Assembly: GCF_003334385.1 (NCBI RefSeq)
Contig: NZ_QOWN01000048.1
Direction: 5' to 3' (one strand)
Length of the DNA stretch: 33,964 nucleotides
Origin: Escherichia coli
Lineage (GTDB): Bacteria > Pseudomonadota > Gammaproteobacteria > Enterobacterales > Enterobacteriaceae
Shown here: positions 16,550 to 26,999 of the stretch, piece by piece
How the letters are laid out: each line of letters starts with the position of its first letter
How positions within the stretch are numbered: position 1 is the stretch's first letter
The notes under the pieces: model-generated
Told to the model about the DNA's origin: nothing
Databases searched by the model: none
Seen by the model: only the letters and a program-made list of their open reading frames with translations
Made by a program: the position numbers and the translations under genes

Positions 16550-19500
16550 TTAATCCACTCCCACTTTTTTGTTGTACTCGCGGTTAAAGCGATCCACGGC
16601 AACCTTCATATCCCGCTCTACCGATTTCACCATCGCCGCCTGCTGCGCCAGACTGAGAGAACTGTCGGCATAAATGGCATCGCGCTGTTTGCGCAAATCC
16701 TTCAGTCTCTTCCGGGTATCCTGCATAAGCCCGTTCATCAACAATTTTCCGTTGTTCTCGTCAATGAACGCCGTTCTTTCTGCACCGGTCAGACTCTTCA
16801 GCTCTGCGTGATACTGCGCAACCTCTGTCATCCGGTCGTACATCTTCTGCTGGTCTGCATACGGCATCACCTCACCCGAAATTTTCCCCAGGAAGGGCAC
16901 CTGCTGCTCCGGTATATCAATACCGTTCAGCGATTTCACCGCCGCATCTGTGGTTTTGGAAATGAAGCGCCCTGTCCCTCCGGAGATATAGTCAATCCAG
17001 AATTTCAGCGATTCCGGTGTGATATCCACCGCGCCGGGACGATACTGGCTGCCACCTGAGAACGCATTCAGCCAGGATGCAAACGCCTTGTACGCCTCAG
17101 GCGTTGAACGTCTGCCCAGCTGGCTGTCCGGTTTCGGTGTGCCAAATGGCATGTTCTCCTGGTAAATCTGCGCCCCCATGAAGTTTTCATTCATGGCAAG
17201 GTTCGCAAACGGACGCAGAATGGTCGGCGCTGCATTTTTCAGCAATGCCCCGGACAGTGTTTCCGACGTTTCACTGCCCACAGGACTGAATGCCCCCAGG
17301 ATACCACCGACAACATTACCGGCAGCACGTGAAGCAGTCAGGTCGCCCGCTGCCACACCTTCAGCAGTATGCCCGAGCAGGAAGAAAACGTTGTACCCGT
17401 AAGGCAGAGGAATACTCCAGTACTCTCCGGCCTTGCCCCCGAACACCGATTTCATAATGACGAGGTTACGCTCTTTCACATGAGACGGCACCTTGTCATA
17501 CCAGTTAACCCCGTCATCATCCTCCCCCGCAACACTGCGGTTAAGCGAGCCAAGCAGATAACCCGCTCCCACAGCTGCAAGCGCGATTTTCTGCGGTACA
17601 TTGAGATTCTTCCAGCGAAGGCGCTCCGGTAACGGCCCGTCGCCATTAAGATGTCCGAGCGTTCTCACCAGGTTTGCGGTCCCCTGAATGCTGGCGTTGG
17701 CAAACATATACAGCGAGTTCATCAGCGCTCCCTGCTCACCACGACGGTTAAAGTTCACCGTCATGTTTTTGGCAAGAGATGCCGCCTGCTGGCGTGACAA
17801 ACCGGCATCACGGGCGTGTTTATAGGCAGAAAGACGCAGAGCGTTTTCAACCGCGCCGTTGGCATCCTCGACCAGGTTCAGGAACGAATGCCATGCACCG
17901 ATACTCTGGCCTTTCCATCCTCCCTTCGCCAGCGATACAAGGCGATCCATTTCCTTCTGCTGGCCTTCAAGGTCACCCATGTTAAACCAGCCGGTTTTAC
18001 CTCCATCCTCAACAAACTCTTTCCACACCTTCTGCCACTGCGCACCGTTGCCCGTGAGGGTTTTACCACGCAGACTGGCGTATACGGCAGACATGGCAGA
18101 CCGGCTGTCTTTCACCACAGCCAGGGCGGATAAGTTATCCTGCCCTTTCAGTTTACCGTCGCTCCTTCCCTGCTCAGCCTTCAGGTTCATCACCGCCGTC
18201 TGCACGTCACGGATGAAGTTACTGACCAGAAATTCCGGGTTATACGACGTGTTCACCGTTGCCAGGAAACGGTTAACTTTCCCCAGCGTACGGATTACGG
18301 CGTTACTGGTTTCCGGCCCCATGTTCTTCATCGCACGCATCAGGCGCGGGTCATGGAGTTTGATGTAGTAAGTTTTGCCGTCCTTTTTGGTGGTGAAGTA
18401 GCGATCCGCCATCATTGCCATAGGCACCGGACGTTCAACAACTTCGCGACGGGTTTCGCCGGTTTCCGGATCAACACGCTCTGCAATCGCCCGCATGGTG
18501 TCCGGTTTGTCATCAGTGAATACCTGCCAGTAATCCTTATCGGGATTATCCTGCACCAGTTTCAGGAAGGCGTTACCCACTTCGTTTTTGCGATTGCGGA
18601 TCAGCGATTCGCTCAAATCCTGTATCGCCTGAGTGGAAGGAGACTGTGCGCGGGATGCACGCCCCATGGCCTGCCTGCTTTCACGTCCGCCGATGGTGAA
18701 GCCCTTACCTGTACGGGGCAGTGACACCACACCGTCAACATCCTGACCTTTCAGGGGAACGTAGTAACGGTAGGCGTTCTGCCAGGCATCCACCACACCG
18801 CTCTCTTCCAGTCCGGCCTCACGGATAAGCTCACGGCGACGGGCCAGCATATCGTCAACAATCCCTGCCAGACGGTCATACTGTGCCTGTTTGCCACTGT
18901 TACGCACACGCTGCATGATTTCCGCCGCTTCCGCGTTGGTCATCCCCGAACCGCCGTCCGGCATTTTCGGGTTGATTTTCGCGATATGCGCGTTACGTTC
19001 CGGCGCGTGACGGGCGTAGAGGTACTCATCCAGATCGGCCTGCGCAATTTTGTAGTCCGCCAGTAATTTAGCCAGTGGCTGAACGTAGCGCTCCTTCATC
19101 ACGTTCAGGTCGTTTTCCGCCTTCCCGTGGAAGAGTTCTTCCGCCATATAAGCGTTGTTACTGTCGTCTATTTTTCCGCCAGTTTTACGGATATTCTCCT
19201 GAACAGCTTTCAGCACCTGGAATTTATCCTGCATCTGGCGCACAAAACGCGATGCAATTGTCTCTTCCGGTGTCAGACTGCTGGTACGGGAGTAATACGG
19301 CCCCTTGCGAATATCTTCAGGATAGAGTATTTTATCTACAGAGCCGCGATAAGAACGCTCCTCTTTGGGCAATTGGAGCCCACTGTACTGAGGGTTATCG
19401 CGGCTTAATTTCTCCTTCCGGTAAAGCGTTAATCCAGCCATTTCCATACTTTTCAGCTTTTTCCCGTTTTCCGTACCGTAAACAGATGCCACCTTGTTAA

Positions 19501-22500
19501 TTTCCAGACGTTTATCTGTCGCCTTCATATGCACTGCCGAGACGACCGGATCACCATTTTTATCCACAGCATCAAGCAGCATCACAACCGCATTTCTTTC
19601 TGTCGCGGAACGGTAAATTGCATCCGGATTGTGCATCAGTTCCGGAAGTCTCTCGATAACATCCATTGGCACCACATGTTTCACGCCATTGGTAGCCTTC
19701 CGCACAGTGTCGCGGGAGATAACCAGCGGCAAATCTGGTGCGCCAAGGTGGCGCAATACCGGCGGCGTACGCCCGATGTTTGCAGTCATTGCACCAGAAC
19801 GTAACGACTTCATCATTCTGGCAAGGTCATCACGATAACGCTCGCCCTCACCTTCCGGCACTTTGAACGGATCAGGCTTACCGCTACGGGAGTACTGAGA
19901 CGATGCGCCAGCGCCATCCTCACGCGGCGTGTAACCTTCCCGCACACGCTGGCCTAACGTGCGAATAGTTTCGCGAACAAGTCTGATATCGTTCAGCTCT
20001 GTCGGCTTCAGTAACCCCGTGCGACGCAGTACCCCTTTGACCAGGGCAACAACACGCTCCCACGCCGCCACAAATTTATTCGGCTGTTTCTCCGCCATAT
20101 GTGCCAGAAATTCACCTGCCTGCACTTCCGGTGATTCCTTACCATAAGACGCATCAACCTTACGCCAGGCGTCACGGATGGTGGCGTTATCACTGTCACG
20201 GGTTTTCAGTACGGTCTTAATAATCGTCTGATATTCCGCTGGCGTGACTACATGCTCCATTGCATGGTGAATAATCTCGTGACGTAACTTCTCGCGAACG
20301 GTCCGCCCGTCAGGGATGTTATCCGCCACCAGGACAATTTCACGTTTATCCGGACGATAGAACGCATGCACCCTGCCGTAACCGTCGAACGATTCACCCG
20401 CCAGCGCTTCAGCCTCTTTCTGTGACTTCACCACGCGGACCTTCAGGTCACTGTCCTTAATGCCACTCATCACGCCACGGGCAACCGCTTCAACCTGCGG
20501 GACCGGGCTGCCTTTGGCTTCCGCACTGCGGTTAACATCCGAAATGAGATTGCCTTCAGGTGTGCGGGTCACGCCCTTACGGGAATAAAACGCAACGCCC
20601 TTGTCCGTCTTACGGGTTTTCAGCGTACTGAACAGGTGATCGAATGCATCACGAATACCGCCATCCAGTTCCGCATTCGTCGGATAAGCCCAGGTGTTAT
20701 CTGTGTTGTGCTCAGGTGCCTTACGGATATTGACCAGATAATCATTCTCCACGCCAGCCGTACGCGCTTTATCCTGAACATAACGCTCAAAGGCACGCGC
20801 CGCCATTTCAACATCCGTTGACCAGTACGGTTTTGAGCGCACCTCATCGAGAAGCGCTGAACGACGCGGCATGTCACTGCTGTTGATCGCTTTCATCACG
20901 CCTTTAAACGCGTCGTAAACCTCCTGACGTACCGGATATTCCGCATCAACATATCTGCCGTCTTTAAATACGCGCCCGGCACGTTGTGCTTCCGTCATAT
21001 AGTCGCCACCTGACGTGATCTTCCCGTCAGTGGAAACATCATAACGACCAAAATAATTATCCAGTGAATGGAACCATTCGTGGGCCAGCGCCCCCGGTCC
21101 GTTACCTTTTGTCAGGTTGATTGCCACCTCACCCGGCTCATAGTGTGCCGCCGCCTTACCCTTACCACGGGCACCAAAAGCAAGCCCAAGACGACCATTC
21201 AGGGAAAGCGCTTTTGTCGGAACGTTCAGCACGTCAGCCAGGTCATGCAGCGAGTCATAAGCCCGGTTCAAATCAGCCTGACGACGCGGACCTTCCACAT
21301 AATTACCAAACTGCACACCACGGAAACCAAACGCATCACTGAACTGCTCCGGCGAAACATCCCCTTTGCGGCGTTCTGGTCCGGTGCGGTCGCGGTTAGT
21401 GGCGTTACGCTGCTCCTCACGCGAAATCTCCCGCATCTCCTTCACATGACGAACAAGCTCATCACGATGTGAATCAATGTACTTACGCGCATCACTGGCT
21501 GACTTAAAACCACCTCTCACCCGCATTTTGTTTTTGCCGTAAGCGATAAAAATATCGCCACTACGGGTATTCCGGTAAACGTCAAAGCTGATTTTGTCAT
21601 CTGGTGACGGTGCTGTTTTTTCATCACCTTTCGCCCGTGACTTTTCCTCCTGCTCTGCAAACCAGGCTTTCGCCTTTGTCAGTAATTCATCCCTGCTTTC
21701 CGAGAAAAAGAGGTTACTCCCCTTATTGTCCTTATTGCGCAGTGAATAAAGTTTCTGTGGCGGATCGTAACGCTTCCCTCCGGCCGCCTGATACACACCG
21801 GATACCACCCGATAAGCAGAAGCCTTGTCCATCTGTGAGGGTGGCAGAGTGCGTAACAGTTGCCAGGTATCCGCGTAACGGGAGGGCATTCTGCCTTCCA
21901 TCCATTCTGCGAGGCGTTTCGCGCTGACCGTTCCGTTCAGCATTTCCGATACACTGTGTCGTACTTTTTTTACGCTCTCCCCCCAGCCAGCCGTATTGTG
22001 TTTCGTCTTCGCCGGAATATCGCTACGATACAGCGCTATCATTGCCAGGGTGTCAGCATCAGCCCCTTCGCTCGCCAGTTTTGCGTAGTCCGGTTTCGGG
22101 AACAGTTTGCTCAGCGGCTGCGTGGCATAATCCCTGTCTTCCAGCGTTTTACCCAGTGTTTCAGCAAGCTGTGCATAACGGTGTTTGGCTGCCCCTTTAA
22201 TTTCCTCGCCAAAGTCTTCAATTTTTTTGCCCCTGACTTCACCTCCGCGCACAGTAGCTTCCCTGTCAGTAGAGACAGTTGTTTCAGATTCAGGTGCGAT
22301 TGTCTCAGGCTGCGGGATGTCACGATTTCCTCCGGCCTGTCGACGTACTTCTGCCTGCTGTGCGAGCTCAGGCAATGAGTTACGAACAGTTCGGGGAAGC
22401 TGATCAGGCTGAGGCATACGGACATTGTGTGTAATGTCCGGAGCCGGTAGACCTTCACGTACCAGCGCTGTGGCGTTCTGCTCATCCGGTGACGGCAGAC

Positions 22501-24928
22501 CACGACGAACTGTTTCGCCCTCCAGTATTTCCCCCTGGCGACCAGCGGCATTTTCCGGTGCCTGCGCACGTCCTTTCTGGAAACTCTGGCCCTTCACCTC
22601 ACCGGTTGTGGTAAAACGACCACCACGTCCGGCCTGATTTTCATCCGGCGTACGCGCTACTTCTCCCGGTAACGGATATCCCTGTCCGGGATGAATATCG
22701 CCGGGAGCGGGAAGGCGTGGACGCTCAGTTAACTCCTGTGCTGTCGGACCGGCATCACCTTCAGCCATCTGGGAACGCACCAGTTCTTCCGCCGTCGGCG
22801 CGTTGCCACGGGCAAGACGGGCCTGCACTTCTGTATCATCCCCCGTAAAACCACGGAATCGCGGGTCACGCATGAACGCGGGCTGTTCCATCGGATCAGC
22901 ATCAGTAATACGCTCTCCGTCAGCCAGAGTGTTAATGGTCTCCGTTGCCACATCTTCAGAGAACGCAGGATTATCCATTTCAACGGCATACTGATTCTCG
23001 CCTTTCTTCACTACGGACGGTTTCAGGCCGGTGGCGCTGGCATTGCGGAAAACGTCGCTCCCCAGAGCACTTTTTTCATCCGTGAAATAACGGTTGTCCG
23101 GACGCACCTTTTCAATGCGTTCTGCTGGTCTGGACGCACCACTCCCGTTAATTTCAATACGAACTTCATCCGGATCGCGGAACCGCACCGTCGGGTAAAT
23201 ACTCCCGTCGCCATCATCCGCATTTTCCGGCTGTGGCTGTGCCTCCGGTCTGGCCTCCTGCTGAGGGCGAAGCACATCACGGATAGCCTGTAACTGCTGC
23301 TCTTCAGTATCAGTACGCCCTTCCTTCAGGCTGAGTTTTCGGTATTCCTCAAGCAGTTCAGGGCGCGGCTTCGCCTTCAGCTCATCCATCACCGCCTGTC
23401 GCTTCGCCTGTTCATCCAGTTCATTTAACAGCTGGCTGGCGGCTTCCCGGCGATGAACGGCAGACGTGTCTCCCTCAGGTGCCATATCCGCATCAGCATA
23501 CTGTTCCAGAAGTTGCTCGCGATTCATGCCCTGCATGGATTCGCGATGCTGTGCCACCGGATCAGCCGGTTCGGGTTGCGGGGCTGCTTCACCCTGCTGT
23601 ACGACTTCAGCCTCACGCATGGCGGTTTCTTCTGCGGCCTGACGTTTTCCACGATATCCGGCAACCGCACCGAACGGTGCGCCCATCGCAGCACCAAGGG
23701 CTGCACCTTCGATCGTTGCGTCAGCCACGCCCTCCCCCGGTGACACATCCATTCCGGCGGTCTCACGCAATGCCGTGTTTTCCTGATAGCGTGAATAGCC
23801 ACCCTGCGCCGCATTAATCGTCCCCTGTTCCGTGGCATTTCTGACAATGCCGCTTTTAACGGTCTTCGCCGTGCCCCGCATCGCCAGATTAAACAACTGA
23901 GCATCGCCCAGTTTTGCCGCCATGGCATTCACAGCCAGCAATTCAGGATCGGTTGCCAGCTGCGCGCGCACCTCATCGGCAACACGCTCTTTTGCCAGGT
24001 CCATTTTCTGGCGATCAGTAAGCTGTGCGTGCTGTGGATCTGCATCAATTGACAAAAACGTCTGCTGAAATTTCGGTGACTGCGCCAGCTCAGCGTAATC
24101 CGCATTAAGAACAGCATCTGCTGCCGACATTGCACTCTGCCCCTGTGCACTGGCTGTGGAATGGGTGATCAGGCCCGCATGGAAGAAATCCGTCATTTTT
24201 TTATCGACAGCTTCTGCTGCCAGTGCCGTGGCTCTTTCCGGCTGCACTCCTGCCGCGATGTATTTTTTCTCCAGCCCGGCGGTCAGCGTTCTTTTCAGTG
24301 CGACCTGTCCCACCTTTCTAACCACACCGCCAGCAACCAGATCAGGTACAAGCGCACCAATCAGGTTTACACCCTTCGTCAGCAAGACCGCAGAATCATC
24401 ATAGCCTTCACTCATTGGCGTGTTCAGCGCACGAACAGCACCCGGCGACATCTGATCTGTCAGCCATTCATCCGAGGCTTTGGCACCATCACTGACTGCC
24501 TTGCCTGTGGCCTTCAGACCTTTACCGACAGTATCAGTCACCGCGTTTTTCCCTGTTCCATCGGGAATGTTTTTAATCGCATCTCCAACAGAAGGTGGTG
24601 CGCCCAGTTCCTTTTGCGTGGAGGAAGGCGGCATGTAAACATCCGTCATGAAAGACGACAACCCGGCAAGCGTTTTTACAGGATTATTTACAAGTGCATC
24701 ACCGAGTCCACGGGCCATTTCCCCTGTTCCCCGGACGGACTGGGCGAAACCTTTACCCATTGTTGGCAATACATCGCCCAGGCTGAACGACGTGCTGTGA
24801 TCAACAGCGTTCTCCGGGTTGTTGAAAAAATCCTGCCAGTAATTTTCTCCCGGCTGCTTAATGTTCAGACTGCTGCGGTTCTGGTTACCCAATTGCGCTT
24901 CAGGGCGCTGCTCATCTGAAAAAGCCAT
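16550..24928 (-). CDS. Giant multidomain phage protein (2792 aa) with two zincin-like HExxH motifs; putative virion-associated 'polyvalent' injected protein
   Basis: Uninterrupted 8379-nt ORF. HEWFH at residues 1283-1287 (nt 21068-21082) and HEIIHH at 1550-1555 (nt 20267-20281). The N-terminal ~1000 residues are A/G/Q/E/P-rich low complexity. SD GGAG 6 nt upstream of the ATG. It is the last gene of a co-directional operon of small structural-type proteins. Confidence 0.75.
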   Translation of the reverse strand: MAFSDEQRPEAQLGNQNRSSLNIKQPGENYWQDFFNNPENAVDHSTSFSLGDVLPTMGKGFAQSVRGTGEMARGLGDALVNNPVKTLAGLSSFMTDVYMPPSSTQKELGAPPSVGDAIKNIPDGTGKNAVTDTVGKGLKATGKAVSDGAKASDEWLTDQMSPGAVRALNTPMSEGYDDSAVLLTKGVNLIGALVPDLVAGGVVRKVGQVALKRTLTAGLEKKYIAAGVQPERATALAAEAVDKKMTDFFHAGLITHSTASAQGQSAMSAADAVLNADYAELAQSPKFQQTFLSIDADPQHAQLTDRQKMDLAKERVADEVRAQLATDPELLAVNAMAAKLGDAQLFNLAMRGTAKTVKSGIVRNATEQGTINAAQGGYSRYQENTALRETAGMDVSPGEGVADATIEGAALGAAMGAPFGAVAGYRGKRQAAEETAMREAEVVQQGEAAPQPEPADPVAQHRESMQGMNREQLLEQYADADMAPEGDTSAVHRREAASQLLNELDEQAKRQAVMDELKAKPRPELLEEYRKLSLKEGRTDTEEQQLQAIRDVLRPQQEARPEAQPQPENADDGDGSIYPTVRFRDPDEVRIEINGSGASRPAERIEKVRPDNRYFTDEKSALGSDVFRNASATGLKPSVVKKGENQYAVEMDNPAFSEDVATETINTLADGERITDADPMEQPAFMRDPRFRGFTGDDTEVQARLARGNAPTAEELVRSQMAEGDAGPTAQELTERPRLPAPGDIHPGQGYPLPGEVARTPDENQAGRGGRFTTTGEVKGQSFQKGRAQAPENAAGRQGEILEGETVRRGLPSPDEQNATALVREGLPAPDITHNVRMPQPDQLPRTVRNSLPELAQQAEVRRQAGGNRDIPQPETIAPESETTVSTDREATVRGGEVRGKKIEDFGEEIKGAAKHRYAQLAETLGKTLEDRDYATQPLSKLFPKPDYAKLASEGADADTLAMIALYRSDIPAKTKHNTAGWGESVKKVRHSVSEMLNGTVSAKRLAEWMEGRMPSRYADTWQLLRTLPPSQMDKASAYRVVSGVYQAAGGKRYDPPQKLYSLRNKDNKGSNLFFSESRDELLTKAKAWFAEQEEKSRAKGDEKTAPSPDDKISFDVYRNTRSGDIFIAYGKNKMRVRGGFKSASDARKYIDSHRDELVRHVKEMREISREEQRNATNRDRTGPERRKGDVSPEQFSDAFGFRGVQFGNYVEGPRRQADLNRAYDSLHDLADVLNVPTKALSLNGRLGLAFGARGKGKAAAHYEPGEVAINLTKGNGPGALAHEWFHSLDNYFGRYDVSTDGKITSGGDYMTEAQRAGRVFKDGRYVDAEYPVRQEVYDAFKGVMKAINSSDMPRRSALLDEVRSKPYWSTDVEMAARAFERYVQDKARTAGVENDYLVNIRKAPEHNTDNTWAYPTNAELDGGIRDAFDHLFSTLKTRKTDKGVAFYSRKGVTRTPEGNLISDVNRSAEAKGSPVPQVEAVARGVMSGIKDSDLKVRVVKSQKEAEALAGESFDGYGRVHAFYRPDKREIVLVADNIPDGRTVREKLRHEIIHHAMEHVVTPAEYQTIIKTVLKTRDSDNATIRDAWRKVDASYGKESPEVQAGEFLAHMAEKQPNKFVAAWERVVALVKGVLRRTGLLKPTELNDIRLVRETIRTLGQRVREGYTPREDGAGASSQYSRSGKPDPFKVPEGEGERYRDDLARMMKSLRSGAMTANIGRTPPVLRHLGAPDLPLVISRDTVRKATNGVKHVVPMDVIERLPELMHNPDAIYRSATERNAVVMLLDAVDKNGDPVVSAVHMKATDKRLEINKVASVYGTENGKKLKSMEMAGLTLYRKEKLSRDNPQYSGLQLPKEERSYRGSVDKILYPEDIRKGPYYSRTSSLTPEETIASRFVRQMQDKFQVLKAVQENIRKTGGKIDDSNNAYMAEELFHGKAENDLNVMKERYVQPLAKLLADYKIAQADLDEYLYARHAPERNAHIAKINPKMPDGGSGMTNAEAAEIMQRVRNSGKQAQYDRLAGIVDDMLARRRELIREAGLEESGVVDAWQNAYRYYVPLKGQDVDGVVSLPRTGKGFTIGGRESRQAMGRASRAQSPSTQAIQDLSESLIRNRKNEVGNAFLKLVQDNPDKDYWQVFTDDKPDTMRAIAERVDPETGETRREVVERPVPMAMMADRYFTTKKDGKTYYIKLHDPRLMRAMKNMGPETSNAVIRTLGKVNRFLATVNTSYNPEFLVSNFIRDVQTAVMNLKAEQGRSDGKLKGQDNLSALAVVKDSRSAMSAVYASLRGKTLTGNGAQWQKVWKEFVEDGGKTGWFNMGDLEGQQKEMDRLVSLAKGGWKGQSIGAWHSFLNLVEDANGAVENALRLSAYKHARDAGLSRQQAASLAKNMTVNFNRRGEQGALMNSLYMFANASIQGTANLVRTLGHLNGDGPLPERLRWKNLNVPQKIALAAVGAGYLLGSLNRSVAGEDDDGVNWYDKVPSHVKERNLVIMKSVFGGKAGEYWSIPLPYGYNVFFLLGHTAEGVAAGDLTASRAAGNVVGGILGAFSPVGSETSETLSGALLKNAAPTILRPFANLAMNENFMGAQIYQENMPFGTPKPDSQLGRRSTPEAYKAFASWLNAFSGGSQYRPGAVDITPESLKFWIDYISGGTGRFISKTTDAAVKSLNGIDIPEQQVPFLGKISGEVMPYADQQKMYDRMTEVAQYHAELKSLTGAERTAFIDENNGKLLMNGLMQDTRKRLKDLRKQRDAIYADSSLSLAQQAAMVKSVERDMKVAVDRFNREYNKKVGVD

Positions 24929-25012: not shown

Positions 25013-26275
25013 TTACTTCATCCAGCCTTTGATCTTCTCGGCAGATGCGGAAGCGCTATAATCCAGCGCCTTTTCATGCTCTGCCTTTTTATCCCTGAGG
25101 TGATTCTGGTAATAAATTTCCACCTCCTTTTCACGACCAGGTTCCAGCAAAGCAGGCATATTGGCGGCAGTCGCTTTTACAAACTCCTGTTTAACCGGAT
25201 CGCCCGCCGCCCACGTCTGCCACTTCTGTAAAAGCTGTTGGGTTTTCTGTTGCTGAATTTTCTGTTGATGCGGTTGTGAACCAGTCGCAGCATAATATTC
25301 ATCCACCGCAGCCTGTGCATTACCGCCATTCTTGATCGCGTCCGCCGCTACGTTGCTGGCCCCCTTCTGAAGCTCTTTCAGAGAAAGTCCCTGCTGCTTC
25401 GGCATAAAATAACCATAATTTTTCGATATCTCTGCAAATTTGCTGCGATCCCTGACCTGAGCGATAGCCTTATCAACGGGTATCGCCAGCACGGTTTGAT
25501 CATCAGGGTGCGCACTGCCGTATTCTGTTACAGGTTTATGCGCGGTGGAGCCATCGCTGTATGTGAGATCAAGGCCAATAAGTACGTACCCTTCCTGCTG
25601 CGCCGGTACGATACTGCCAATCCTGGCCTCTTTTATCGTTTTTTCCCCGGTTGAATCAGGCATGCCAATACGCTGTTGTAGTTCCGGGGCAAACACGCCG
25701 GAAAGCACATCGAGATTTTCCGGGGTATTCAGCGAAGCAATCGCCCTGTCCGGCTTATCATCAAAGATTTTCTGCAGGTTGTTCACGGCCTGACCCGCTT
25801 TCGCAGCATAGCCTACCGTTGACATCATCTTAAGCGGATTGGCGTCCGATAATTTACCGAACAGATGAGAAGCCGCATCATGGTCACCCGCATCAATCGC
25901 TTTTCCCAGCGCCGCCATCACAGGCTGATCGCGCGCCAGCATATCGTTATACTCAAGCCGTCGCTGGTTGTATTTCTGCAACTGGAGTCGTTGCTGTTCC
26001 ATCCCCAGCGACGCATTCCGGTAATTCTGGTTGGCGTTAAACTCCCTTTCCTGCAGTGTGTAATTGCGGTCATCAACTTTGGCTCTGTAATCAAAGTTCC
26101 GCTGATCAACGTCTTTATTATGTTCAAACTGAGACTGCGCAAATTCAAAATCGCGCTCGTTATTTTTCTGTTGCTGAGCAAGCTGTGCTTCTCGCAAACC
26201 AAGCTCCTTACGACGGGTCATTGCCTGGTCAACAGTGCTGAATCCGGCAAGTAACCCCTGTGCAAATCCGCTCAT
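25013..26275 (-). CDS. Hypothetical phage protein (420 aa), Q/N/K-rich; putative virion/ejection protein
   Basis: Long ORF tightly packed in the co-directional block upstream of the giant gene. No recognised catalytic motif. Confidence 0.5.
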   Translation of the reverse strand: MSGFAQGLLAGFSTVDQAMTRRKELGLREAQLAQQQKNNERDFEFAQSQFEHNKDVDQRNFDYRAKVDDRNYTLQEREFNANQNYRNASLGMEQQRLQLQKYNQRRLEYNDMLARDQPVMAALGKAIDAGDHDAASHLFGKLSDANPLKMMSTVGYAAKAGQAVNNLQKIFDDKPDRAIASLNTPENLDVLSGVFAPELQQRIGMPDSTGEKTIKEARIGSIVPAQQEGYVLIGLDLTYSDGSTAHKPVTEYGSAHPDDQTVLAIPVDKAIAQVRDRSKFAEISKNYGYFMPKQQGLSLKELQKGASNVAADAIKNGGNAQAAVDEYYAATGSQPHQQKIQQQKTQQLLQKWQTWAAGDPVKQEFVKATAANMPALLEPGREKEVEIYYQNHLRDKKAEHEKALDYSASASAEKIKGWMK

Positions 26276-26285
26276 TCACCACTCC

Positions 26286-26537
26286 TTAAAACAAAGAACC
26301 AGCAATGCCGCCAATTACTGCACCAGCAACAGCGCCAACAGGACCACCAACGGATGCGCCAATAGCCGCCCCCGTACCAATGCCCGTACCGATATTCTGC
26401 TTGTTCTGCGCTTTCTGCTGCGCCGCCATCTGTTTGTTCGCAGCCTCAATTTCTTCACGTCGTCGGTCTGCGTCACTTATTCCCTGTAATGCCTCACGCC
26501 GTGACTGATTCGCAATATCCAGTAAACCGTATCCCAT
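26286..26537 (-). CDS. Small protein with C-terminal glycine-zipper membrane segment
   Basis: 83 aa; the C-terminus GTGIGTGAAIGASVGGPVGAVAGAVIGGIAGSLF is a classic glycine-zipper transmembrane helix. It lies 10 bp upstream of the 420-aa gene. Confidence 0.45.
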   Translation of the reverse strand: MGYGLLDIANQSRREALQGISDADRRREEIEAANKQMAAQQKAQNKQNIGTGIGTGAAIGASVGGPVGAVAGAVIGGIAGSLF

Positions 26538-26546
26538 ATTTCCTCC

Positions 26547-26999
26547 TTACGCTGACACCAGTTGTCCGCCAACACTCAGTTGCTGTCTTGCAGGTGCAGA
26601 AGCCCCCGTCAGTATGTTCATCTGACGATCCTGCTCTGCTTCACGGATACCATTTTTCGCGCCAGCAATTGCCAGGGCATTACGTAACCCCAGCGTATTA
26701 CTGTTGGGATTATCAGGTCGGTTAACGCCATATCGTGCCATCTGGTTATCCTGCGCCATCTGCGCTGTACGGAGACTGGAAGTGGCAAGGCCGCCCACCC
26801 GGGCAAGCTGTGCATTCATCAGGCTGTTGTTCTCGCCAAGGTCAGCCAGCCTTGCTACACGGGGTAAATATCTGGTGCGCCAGTCGTCGTATTGCTGGCG
26901 GGTCAGCGCTGCGGATGTCTGCCAGTCCCCCTGAGGGCGGGCTGCTCCGGTATAACCGTATCTCGCAAGTGTTTCGTATTTACCGTACTCCATAATCAC
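26547..26999 (-). CDS. Hypothetical phage protein (150 aa)
   Basis: Its start overlaps the stop of the upstream 218-aa gene by 4 nt, indicating translational coupling. Confidence 0.45.
   Translation of the reverse strand: MIMEYGKYETLARYGYTGAARPQGDWQTSAALTRQQYDDWRTRYLPRVARLADLGENNSLMNAQLARVGGLATSSLRTAQMAQDNQMARYGVNRPDNPNSNTLGLRNALAIAGAKNGIREAEQDRQMNILTGASAPARQQLSVGGQLVSA

Follow-up and report, generated by a model that had tools for sequence, protein, structure and literature searches.

The open reading frame (ORF) at 16550-24928 on the minus strand of a 33,964-nucleotide stretch of Escherichia coli DNA (contig NZ_QOWN01000048.1, hereafter the window) encodes the known giant virion protein of the Sepvirinae Shiga toxin (Stx)-type phages, which is already annotated as a polyvalent protein. 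We propose that this 2,792-aa protein is probably an encapsidated ejection protein of a short-tailed prophage of the Sepvirinae type (933W/phi24B-like), built as a polyvalent protein. The polyvalent content is already present in public annotation and in the literature: RefSeq lists the protein as WP_021571280.1, 'LPD38 domain-containing protein', and names its counterparts after LPD38 or LPD5. PHROG 616 spans it end to end.

The frame is single and unbroken, with 2,792 codons and a stop, and its start is the first ATG past the upstream stop codon, which makes a 5' extension impossible. A preliminary description of the window had drawn attention to this uninterrupted 8.4-kb frame, and the frame proved intact in hundreds of genomes. 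The accompanying view that such a frame is very unusual for a temperate enterobacterial phage was wrong. Of 5,426 complete E. coli genomes, 426 carry the gene, and in 422 genomes the match extends over 80% or more of the query. It is also found in 186 phage records, with 93-96% nucleotide identity; almost all of these are short-tailed Stx-converting phages, among them 933W, phi24B, P13374, Min27, Stx2-86 and Shigella 75/02.

Known orthologues of the giant protein are phi24B vb_24B_48 (gp47 in a 2026 cryo-EM preprint), 933W L0134 and Sp5/VT2-Sakai ORF80 (ECs1242), which occupy the same position, behind the same four small genes and at the end of the late operon. The phi24B protein is 93% identical in amino acid sequence over the full length and has the same Pfam domains. 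In Sp5, the Stx2 phage of O157 Sakai, ORF80 (2,793 aa) is among nine newly identified essential late genes (PMC5155283). Its deletion leaves the DNA packaged and the heads normal-looking, with 0 plaques and particles devoid of tail-fibre antibody binding; the authors concluded that ORF80 'participates in tail assembly' and left its exact role unassigned (PMC5155283). Mass spectrometry of virions, one of the checks advised in the preliminary description, has already been carried out on the phi24B orthologue. There, gp47 is abundant in purified virions by mass spectrometry and is missing from the cryo-EM reconstruction (bioRxiv 10.64898/2026.04.10.717836). The tail model of that phage is complete, comprising portal, two adaptor rings, nozzle, lateral fibres and needle, and shows no gp47 density; LPD5, LPD1, LPD38 and 'a Muf-C metallopeptidase domain' were reported for the protein, and an ejection protein was proposed (bioRxiv 10.64898/2026.04.10.717836). 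Mass spectrometry has likewise shown virion association for gp69, the related giant of Burkholderia phage JC1 and another carrier of LPD38 (PMC9144972). For the close orthologues, late expression, presence in the virion, absence from the ordered capsid and tail model, and necessity for infectious particles bearing tail fibres have thus been shown. Since the Sp5 orthologue is essential for infectious, tailed particles, the giant protein is not merely an accessory effector.

The same observations could be taken to mean that the protein is a tail-assembly factor or an external tail component, such as a chaperone, a scaffold, a tape-measure-like protein or a fibre. The full heads without tail-fibre antibody signal in the Sp5 ORF80 deletion, from which its authors inferred a tail-assembly role, are in line with this, as is the position of the gene after the tail genes. 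However, the phi24B tail is fully accounted for without density of the giant protein, abundant as it is, and no tail-fibre or tape-measure family matches it in Pfam, PHROGs or NCBIfam. In addition, the total avoidance of cysteine and the enzymatic cargo described below fit injected proteins rather than an external tail role. We consider a tail role improbable. Neither of the outcomes that the preliminary description had named against its own reading was found: the frame is intact, and no domain of a conventional tail fibre or tape-measure protein was matched.

A further alternative is that the frame is decaying and non-functional in a defective prophage, its motifs being fossils. The 420-aa gene next to it is labelled 'frameshifted' by the PGAP annotation, and antirepressor fragments lie at the prophage end. 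Against this, the 8.4-kb frame is intact, with the high query coverage given above, the catalytic residues do not vary even in homologues at about 30% identity, and the orthologues are expressed and essential. We give decay almost no weight.

Domain architecture of the giant protein

Pfam identifies four domains in the giant protein, namely LPD5 (aa 1050-1199, E = 2e-45), LPD1 (aa 1360-1439, E = 3e-23), MuF_C (aa 1749-1840, E = 3e-18) and LPD38 (aa 2475-2680, E = 5e-48). All four were defined for polyvalent proteins by Iyer et al. in 2017, together with the concept itself (PMC5512222). With the two zincin modules found by domain searches and structure prediction, the protein combines several unrelated domains of that inventory, and it is phage-encoded and located among virion genes. 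The polyvalent reading offered in the preliminary description is supported by these four domains and by the virion presence of the phi24B orthologue. The resemblance to the proteins of Iyer et al. extends to large size, multidomain build, placement in a virion gene cluster, and the presence of LPD5, LPD1, LPD38, MuF-C and two described zincin clades; in contrast to those proteins, which were treated mainly as effectors, the orthologue of the giant protein is essential for particle formation (PMC5512222). That study offered no experimental function, and 933W is unnamed in its main text (PMC5512222).

The enzymatic middle begins with a unit of residues 900-1450, which homologue searches reveal as a single mobile entity made of a helical domain, LPD5 and a zincin (these and all further features of the giant gene and its upstream block lie on the minus strand). 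The helical domain (aa 917-1036; 21821-22180) has no Pfam match, is modelled with a pLDDT of about 90 and travels with the LPD5/zincin-1 unit. LPD5 (21332-21781) matches PF18799 and adopts an alpha/beta fold in the model. The first zincin metallopeptidase (aa 1193-1449; 20582-21352) contains the HEWFH motif, which starts at residue 1283 (codons 21068-21082). Residues H1262, H1283, E1284, H1287, D1290, E1374 and E1381 are invariant in 34 sequences, to about 30% identity, and W1285 is also part of the invariant HEWxH motif. The domain therefore has the HExxH motif on a helix, a downstream Glu as possible third ligand, and the strand His and the Asp of its clade, in agreement with the zincin clade of Iyer et al., in which the His is on strand 2 and the Asp three residues past HExxH (PMC5512222). 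LPD1 corresponds to the C-terminal helical portion of this zincin, and its glutamates could be the third zinc ligand. The NCBIfam family CLCA_X (NF041907) gives 152 bits at aa 1181-1436 with a cut-off of 260, so that zincin 1 is related to that family and is not a member of it.

The second zincin (aa 1476-1615; 20084-20503) contains HEIIHH from residue 1550 (codons 20264-20281), that is, H1550-E1551-I-I-H1554-H1555. Among its matches in related giants, HExxxH is the sole motif in 44 and one of two possible readings in 3; HExxH is the sole motif in 0, and 19, many of them partial, have neither. The prevalence of HExxxH in the relatives indicates that HEIIHH is best read as H1550...H1555. Along with E1606, which is conserved on the helix after the motif, this provides the HExxxH and downstream Glu that characterise the HExxxH clade of Iyer et al. 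(PMC5512222). The positions given for the two motifs in the preliminary description were exact, and of the one or two metallopeptidase modules suggested there, two are present, both zincins with complete invariant residues and with the beta sheet and flanking helices of the fold. Both motifs are kept in homologues at 29-50% identity, and the chance expectation for an HExxH in the giant protein is about 0.04, given its composition. For aa 900-1880, AF2 gave a model with a mean pLDDT of 76.6, in which 363 residues reach 90 or more; a Foldseek search of this model against the PDB gave no significant match.

The third element of the middle is a MuF-C/PBECR domain (aa 1694-1840; 19409-19849), identified by its family profile as a BECR-fold, RNase-like domain. 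In addition to the profile match, it displays the conserved His and the C-terminal Ser/Thr of the BECR-fold RNases; the conserved residues are K1744, H1751, H1800, S1815 and Y1817. Iyer et al. class MuF-C as a BECR-fold RNase (PBECR), not as a peptidase (PMC5512222). Judged by its profile and conserved residues, the domain is RNase-like, and the 'peptidase' label attached to it in the phi24B preprint is a mislabel.

This assignment bears on the proposal, made in the phi24B preprint, that the metallopeptidase of the giant protein cuts the peptide stems of peptidoglycan so that a trans-periplasmic conduit can reach the inner membrane. Podovirus ejectosomes usually need a wall-degrading activity, such as the transglycosylase domain of T7 gp16, and the lytic transglycosylase-like domain at residues 80-192 of the JC1 giant has no counterpart here, so that another activity would be needed. 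However, the preprint places the peptidase on MuF-C, a domain of the BECR RNase type. The two actual zincins look like endopeptidases that act on proteins or peptides (MtfA, lethal factor, Pro-Pro endopeptidase) and not like the M15/M23 wall peptidases, and Iyer et al. assign both zincin clades to polyprotein processing or to protein targets (PMC5512222). A peptidoglycan-cutting role appears unlikely to us.

The N-terminal third of the protein had been described as disordered, which is only partly correct. Homologue searches define a conserved, Ala/Gly-rich domain at aa 1-450 (23579-24928). Around aa 181-205 it has a conserved hydrophobic segment, and aa 408-424 form a GxxxG glycine zipper. 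The description holds only for about aa 420-900, which looks low-complexity or disorder-prone. By composition, aa 451-900 (22229-23578) form a low-complexity linker rich in Pro, Glu, Arg and Gln, which is probably disordered according to a crude charge/hydropathy measure; within it, conservation in Serratia and Yersinia homologues extends over aa 650-806. The N-terminal domain is presumably a membrane-inserting or anchoring module. It is also the most variable part of the protein in comparison with phi24B, aa 61-240 (in the region 24209-24928) being only 68% identical and the remainder 92-98%. As a separate observation, this local divergence might reflect contact with the host envelope or superinfection exclusion.

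At the opposite end lies a mostly helical module of about 900 residues (aa 1880-2792; 16553-19291), delimited by homologue searches and enclosing LPD38 (16889-17506). This C-terminal module is highly conserved and is kept as a unit behind different cargo in giants of Vibrio, Ralstonia and Burkholderia phages. It closes the 3,066-aa giant of Vibrio phage D56 at 42% identity and the 3,224-4,515-aa 'DarB-like' giants of Ralstonia GP4 and the Burkholderia Bcep22/JC1 phages at 27% identity. These giants share the gene position and differ in cargo; in D56 and GP4 that position is behind the tail-fibre genes. Foldseek found no PDB relative for the model of the module (pLDDT 74.8), nor did sequence profiles of the module. 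When the PDB was searched by sequence, the whole protein and the profiles of the core and the C-module returned low-complexity noise only. Two stand-alone C-modules were considered as proof that the module serves as a 'chassis' and were set aside, as the start of P0197 is 41 nt away from the edge of its contig and P0147 lies in a prophage remnant, and both are probably truncated or remnants.

The shared C-terminal module raises the question of whether the giant protein is a DarB-type antirestriction protein, which would modify or shield the incoming DNA against type I restriction. PHROG 10089, 'DarB-like antirestriction', matches aa 2353-2680, and the GP4 and Bcep22-like giants that carry the C-module are annotated as 'DarB-like'. 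These giants also agree with the giant protein in having LPD38 within the module and in gene position, and their phages have a related capsid/portal module; they are virion-associated by mass spectrometry, and the GP4 giant likewise has 0 Cys. However, the DarB match is limited to the C-terminal LPD38 region. DarB is defined by N6-adenine methyltransferase and helicase domains, both of which are missing: no Pfam domain of either kind was found anywhere in the giant protein. Pairwise similarity to the GP4 giant is restricted to the C-module, and BLASTP finds no common N-terminal domain. The cargo differs as well, with methyltransferase, helicase, LPD3 and lytic transglycosylase in the 'DarB-like' giants and LPD5/zincin 1 and MuF-C here. 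We rejected the DarB-like identity, which we regard as very improbable.

The architecture was followed across the family by searching a representative set of 1.84 billion proteins with aa 1-460. This gave 95 matches, of which 59 are giants of 1,800-4,665 aa; the matches from another large protein database were no longer than about 1,600 aa and are fragments, and the full-length relatives came from the representative search. The N-terminal domain is at or near the N terminus in nearly all 59, that is, in all but one of the full-length giants listed. Zincin 2 occurs in 47 of them, the LPD5/zincin-1 unit in 20 and the RNase-like domain in 16, making zincin 2 the most widely shared of the cargo modules tested. 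The C-module was found in 30 of the 59 by profile search. The family pattern is one of constant ends and a variable enzymatic middle.

Cysteine avoidance and the upstream gene block

The giant protein contains 0 Cys in 2,792 residues, and the same is true of its four upstream neighbors, giving 3,663 Cys-free residues together. Most other genes of the window encode 1-4% Cys, the exception being a 422-aa tail-tip protein with 0 Cys. The trait extends to the family: the 172,797 residues of the 59 related giants include 5 Cys, and 55 of these giants are entirely Cys-free. The giants of GP4 and D56 and their upstream virion-protein genes are Cys-free as well. Among the known ejected proteins that we checked, Cys is found at 0 of 747 positions in T7 gp15, 0 of 1,318 in T7 gp16 and 0 of 3,500 in the N4 virion RNA polymerase (vRNAP). 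The trait held in common with these proteins supports the assignment of the five-gene block to ejection proteins. Avoidance of Cys may be caused by unfolded passage through the tail and the oxidising periplasm.

The preliminary description had placed the giant gene behind a tightly coupled operon of small Gly/Gln-rich proteins, and the arrangement is as described. The four same-strand genes are separated by one 4-nt overlap and by gaps of 9 and 10 nt, followed by 84 nt to the giant gene, and their products contain 6-18% Gly, 8-10% Gln and 12-18% Ala. The packed block opens with the gene of a 218-aa Gly/Gln/Ala-rich protein (26996-27652; PHROG 611), which weakly matches a 'virion structural protein' PHROG; a terminator-like site precedes this gene at 27694-27675. 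It is followed by a 150-aa candidate ejection or internal virion protein (26547-26999; PHROG 596), an 83-aa glycine-zipper protein (26286-26537) and a 420-aa Gln/Ala-rich candidate ejection protein (25013-26275), which PHROG 601 covers almost end to end. Glycine zippers occur in the 218-aa protein, the 83-aa protein and the giant protein's N-terminal domain. By gene order, the 420-aa gene appears to occupy the position of the essential Sp5 ORF79. In a 100%-identical genome this gene is marked 'frameshifted' by PGAP, and the ORF in the window is intact; the mark is probably an annotation artefact.

The 83-aa protein is called 'bacteriocin' by PGAP and is a candidate membrane-active ejection protein. 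In the phi24B virion proteome, a 'homolog of a bacteriocin' was detected and set aside as a contaminant. It would be the orthologue of the 83-aa gene, whose product is more probably a true internal or ejection protein with membrane activity than a contaminant.

The intrinsic terminator reported upstream of the giant gene is also present, as a terminator-like hairpin GCCCGAC-CATCGT-GTCGGGC followed by T7 at 24967-24948. Its stem has 7 bp, 6 of them G-C, and the hairpin with its T7 sits 19 nt before the ATG of the giant gene. In a lambdoid late operon, such a hairpin would be read through under Q antitermination.

Proposed course of delivery

We propose that the giant protein is stored inside the head in a loosely folded, beads-on-a-string form. 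At infection it would leave through the tail channel, with or after the four small Cys-free upstream proteins, which may form a conduit spanning the envelope. The glycine-zipper N-terminal domain would insert into or anchor at the membrane, and the C-terminal module of about 900 residues would supply the packaging and ejectosome function, which would account for the essentiality of the gene. The middle would then be exchangeable cargo, consisting of two active-looking zinc endopeptidases and the BECR-type RNase-like domain. The HExxxH protease, which is the best candidate for a processing enzyme, would most likely cut the polyprotein or a host protein after delivery, and the RNase may act on host or early RNA. 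That the cargo counters host defence is a plausible guess, made by analogy with the polyvalent proteins. A more specific version, which we regard as less likely than not, is that the protein is an essential Cys-free ejectosome carrier with repeatedly captured, interchangeable enzymes, uniting two functions that are mostly considered apart; its N-terminal and C-terminal modules lack a relative of solved fold. The HExxxH zincin, as the one widely shared cargo element, would release the cargo after delivery. In Stx-type phages this cargo would be the second protease and the BECR RNase, directed at host proteins or RNAs within the first minutes of infection, possibly including defence components.

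Two known systems are comparable. The vRNAP gp50 of phage N4 is a 3,500-aa encapsidated and ejected protein encoded beside smaller ejection proteins; it has a zincin domain and follows the same tripartite plan, in that its N-terminal domain binds lipid, its middle is enzymatic and its large C-terminal domain is required for encapsidation. A beads-on-a-string model has been drawn for it. It differs in sharing no sequence similarity with the giant protein and in its RNA polymerase domain, which is absent here, where the cargo is proteases and an RNase-like domain. The T7 proteins gp14, gp15 and gp16 likewise come from an operon of internal virion proteins that ends in the largest and is essential for infectivity. 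However, they are not homologous to the proteins studied here, the transglycosylase of gp16 is absent, and gp16 has 1,318 residues as compared with 2,792.

Several points weigh against the ejection-protein interpretation. The evidence for virion presence and essentiality comes from orthologues and not from this copy, and ejection into the cell is an inference throughout. The Sp5 phenotype was read by its authors as a tail-assembly defect and is unlike that of the classic P22 ejection-protein mutants. No sequence or fold relationship to T7 gp14-16 or N4 gp50 emerged from PDB searches and, for gp50, from BLASTP and the C-module profile. A peptidoglycan hydrolase domain was not found in the giant protein, which leaves the crossing of the wall unexplained. 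Searches of PADLOC and of anti-defence families gave no match for the giant protein or its neighbors, apart from noise on the 83-aa protein. Finally, the 'chassis' idea rests on domain shuffling, with no free-standing example of the C-module.

Genome setting and implications

The window is part of an E. coli chromosome, with ynfE, ynfF and a truncated 4Fe-4S gene of the host adjoining the prophage end. The 10 kb around the giant gene are 100% identical to strain SW070917. The prophage has a capsid of the N4-gp56 type and a portal, and the giant gene is the final one of its late/tail cluster, the synteny of which is shared with phi24B, GP4 and Vibrio D56. No stx gene was seen within the window.

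In the phi24B, Sp5 and 933W phages, the prophage end lies next to the gene of the giant protein; here, in contrast, a Panacea gene and an IbrA/IbrB-like pair are found there. The former, at 15875-16399 on the minus strand, is the next gene downstream and matches Pfam SocA_Panacea (E = 3e-19), as anticipated by the preliminary description. We considered Panacea as an immunity partner of the RNase-like domain and rejected this, since there is no adjacent toxin ORF and the Panacea gene lies downstream of the giant gene in just 18 of 425 genomes carrying it. The Panacea gene is orphan variable cargo at the prophage end, incidental to the giant gene.

The IbrA/IbrB-type pair lies on the plus strand at 13931-15786, between the prophage end and the giant gene, and consists of a PAPS-reductase-like gene and a ParB-like 'IbrB-like' gene that overlap each other. 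Ralstonia GP4 and Burkholderia JC1 also have a PAPS-reductase-like gene, in the virion module adjoining their giant, a recurrence that is unexplained. Farther out, at about 12040-13734 (plus strand), lies the truncated 4Fe-4S gene, which is what remains of ynfG, and behind it are two antA/antB antirepressor genes, the first partial and the second complete. These genes point to insertion of the prophage within or beside ynfG and to some rearrangement at that end. On the other side, a Hok/Gef-family toxin gene (28204-28344) and an Ail/Lom outer-membrane protein gene (28577-29314), both on the minus strand, sit in the late region between the tail-tip genes and the Cys-free block and are typical lambdoid morons.

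The discovery itself is already contained in the RefSeq annotation and three papers. What is added here is a residue-level map, the HExxxH reading of zincin 2, the correction of MuF-C, the architecture across about 60 giants and the Cys-free signature. In the phages that disseminate Shiga toxin, the gene accounts for about 14% of the genome, and it is essential, with a function that is still undefined; the domain map with its residue-level active sites guides the choice of point mutants and deletions. If the carrier reading is true, Cys avoidance also flags the four small upstream proteins, including the 83-aa 'bacteriocin'. The Cys-free signature could serve as a simple, testable marker of ejected phage proteins, and it may be general.

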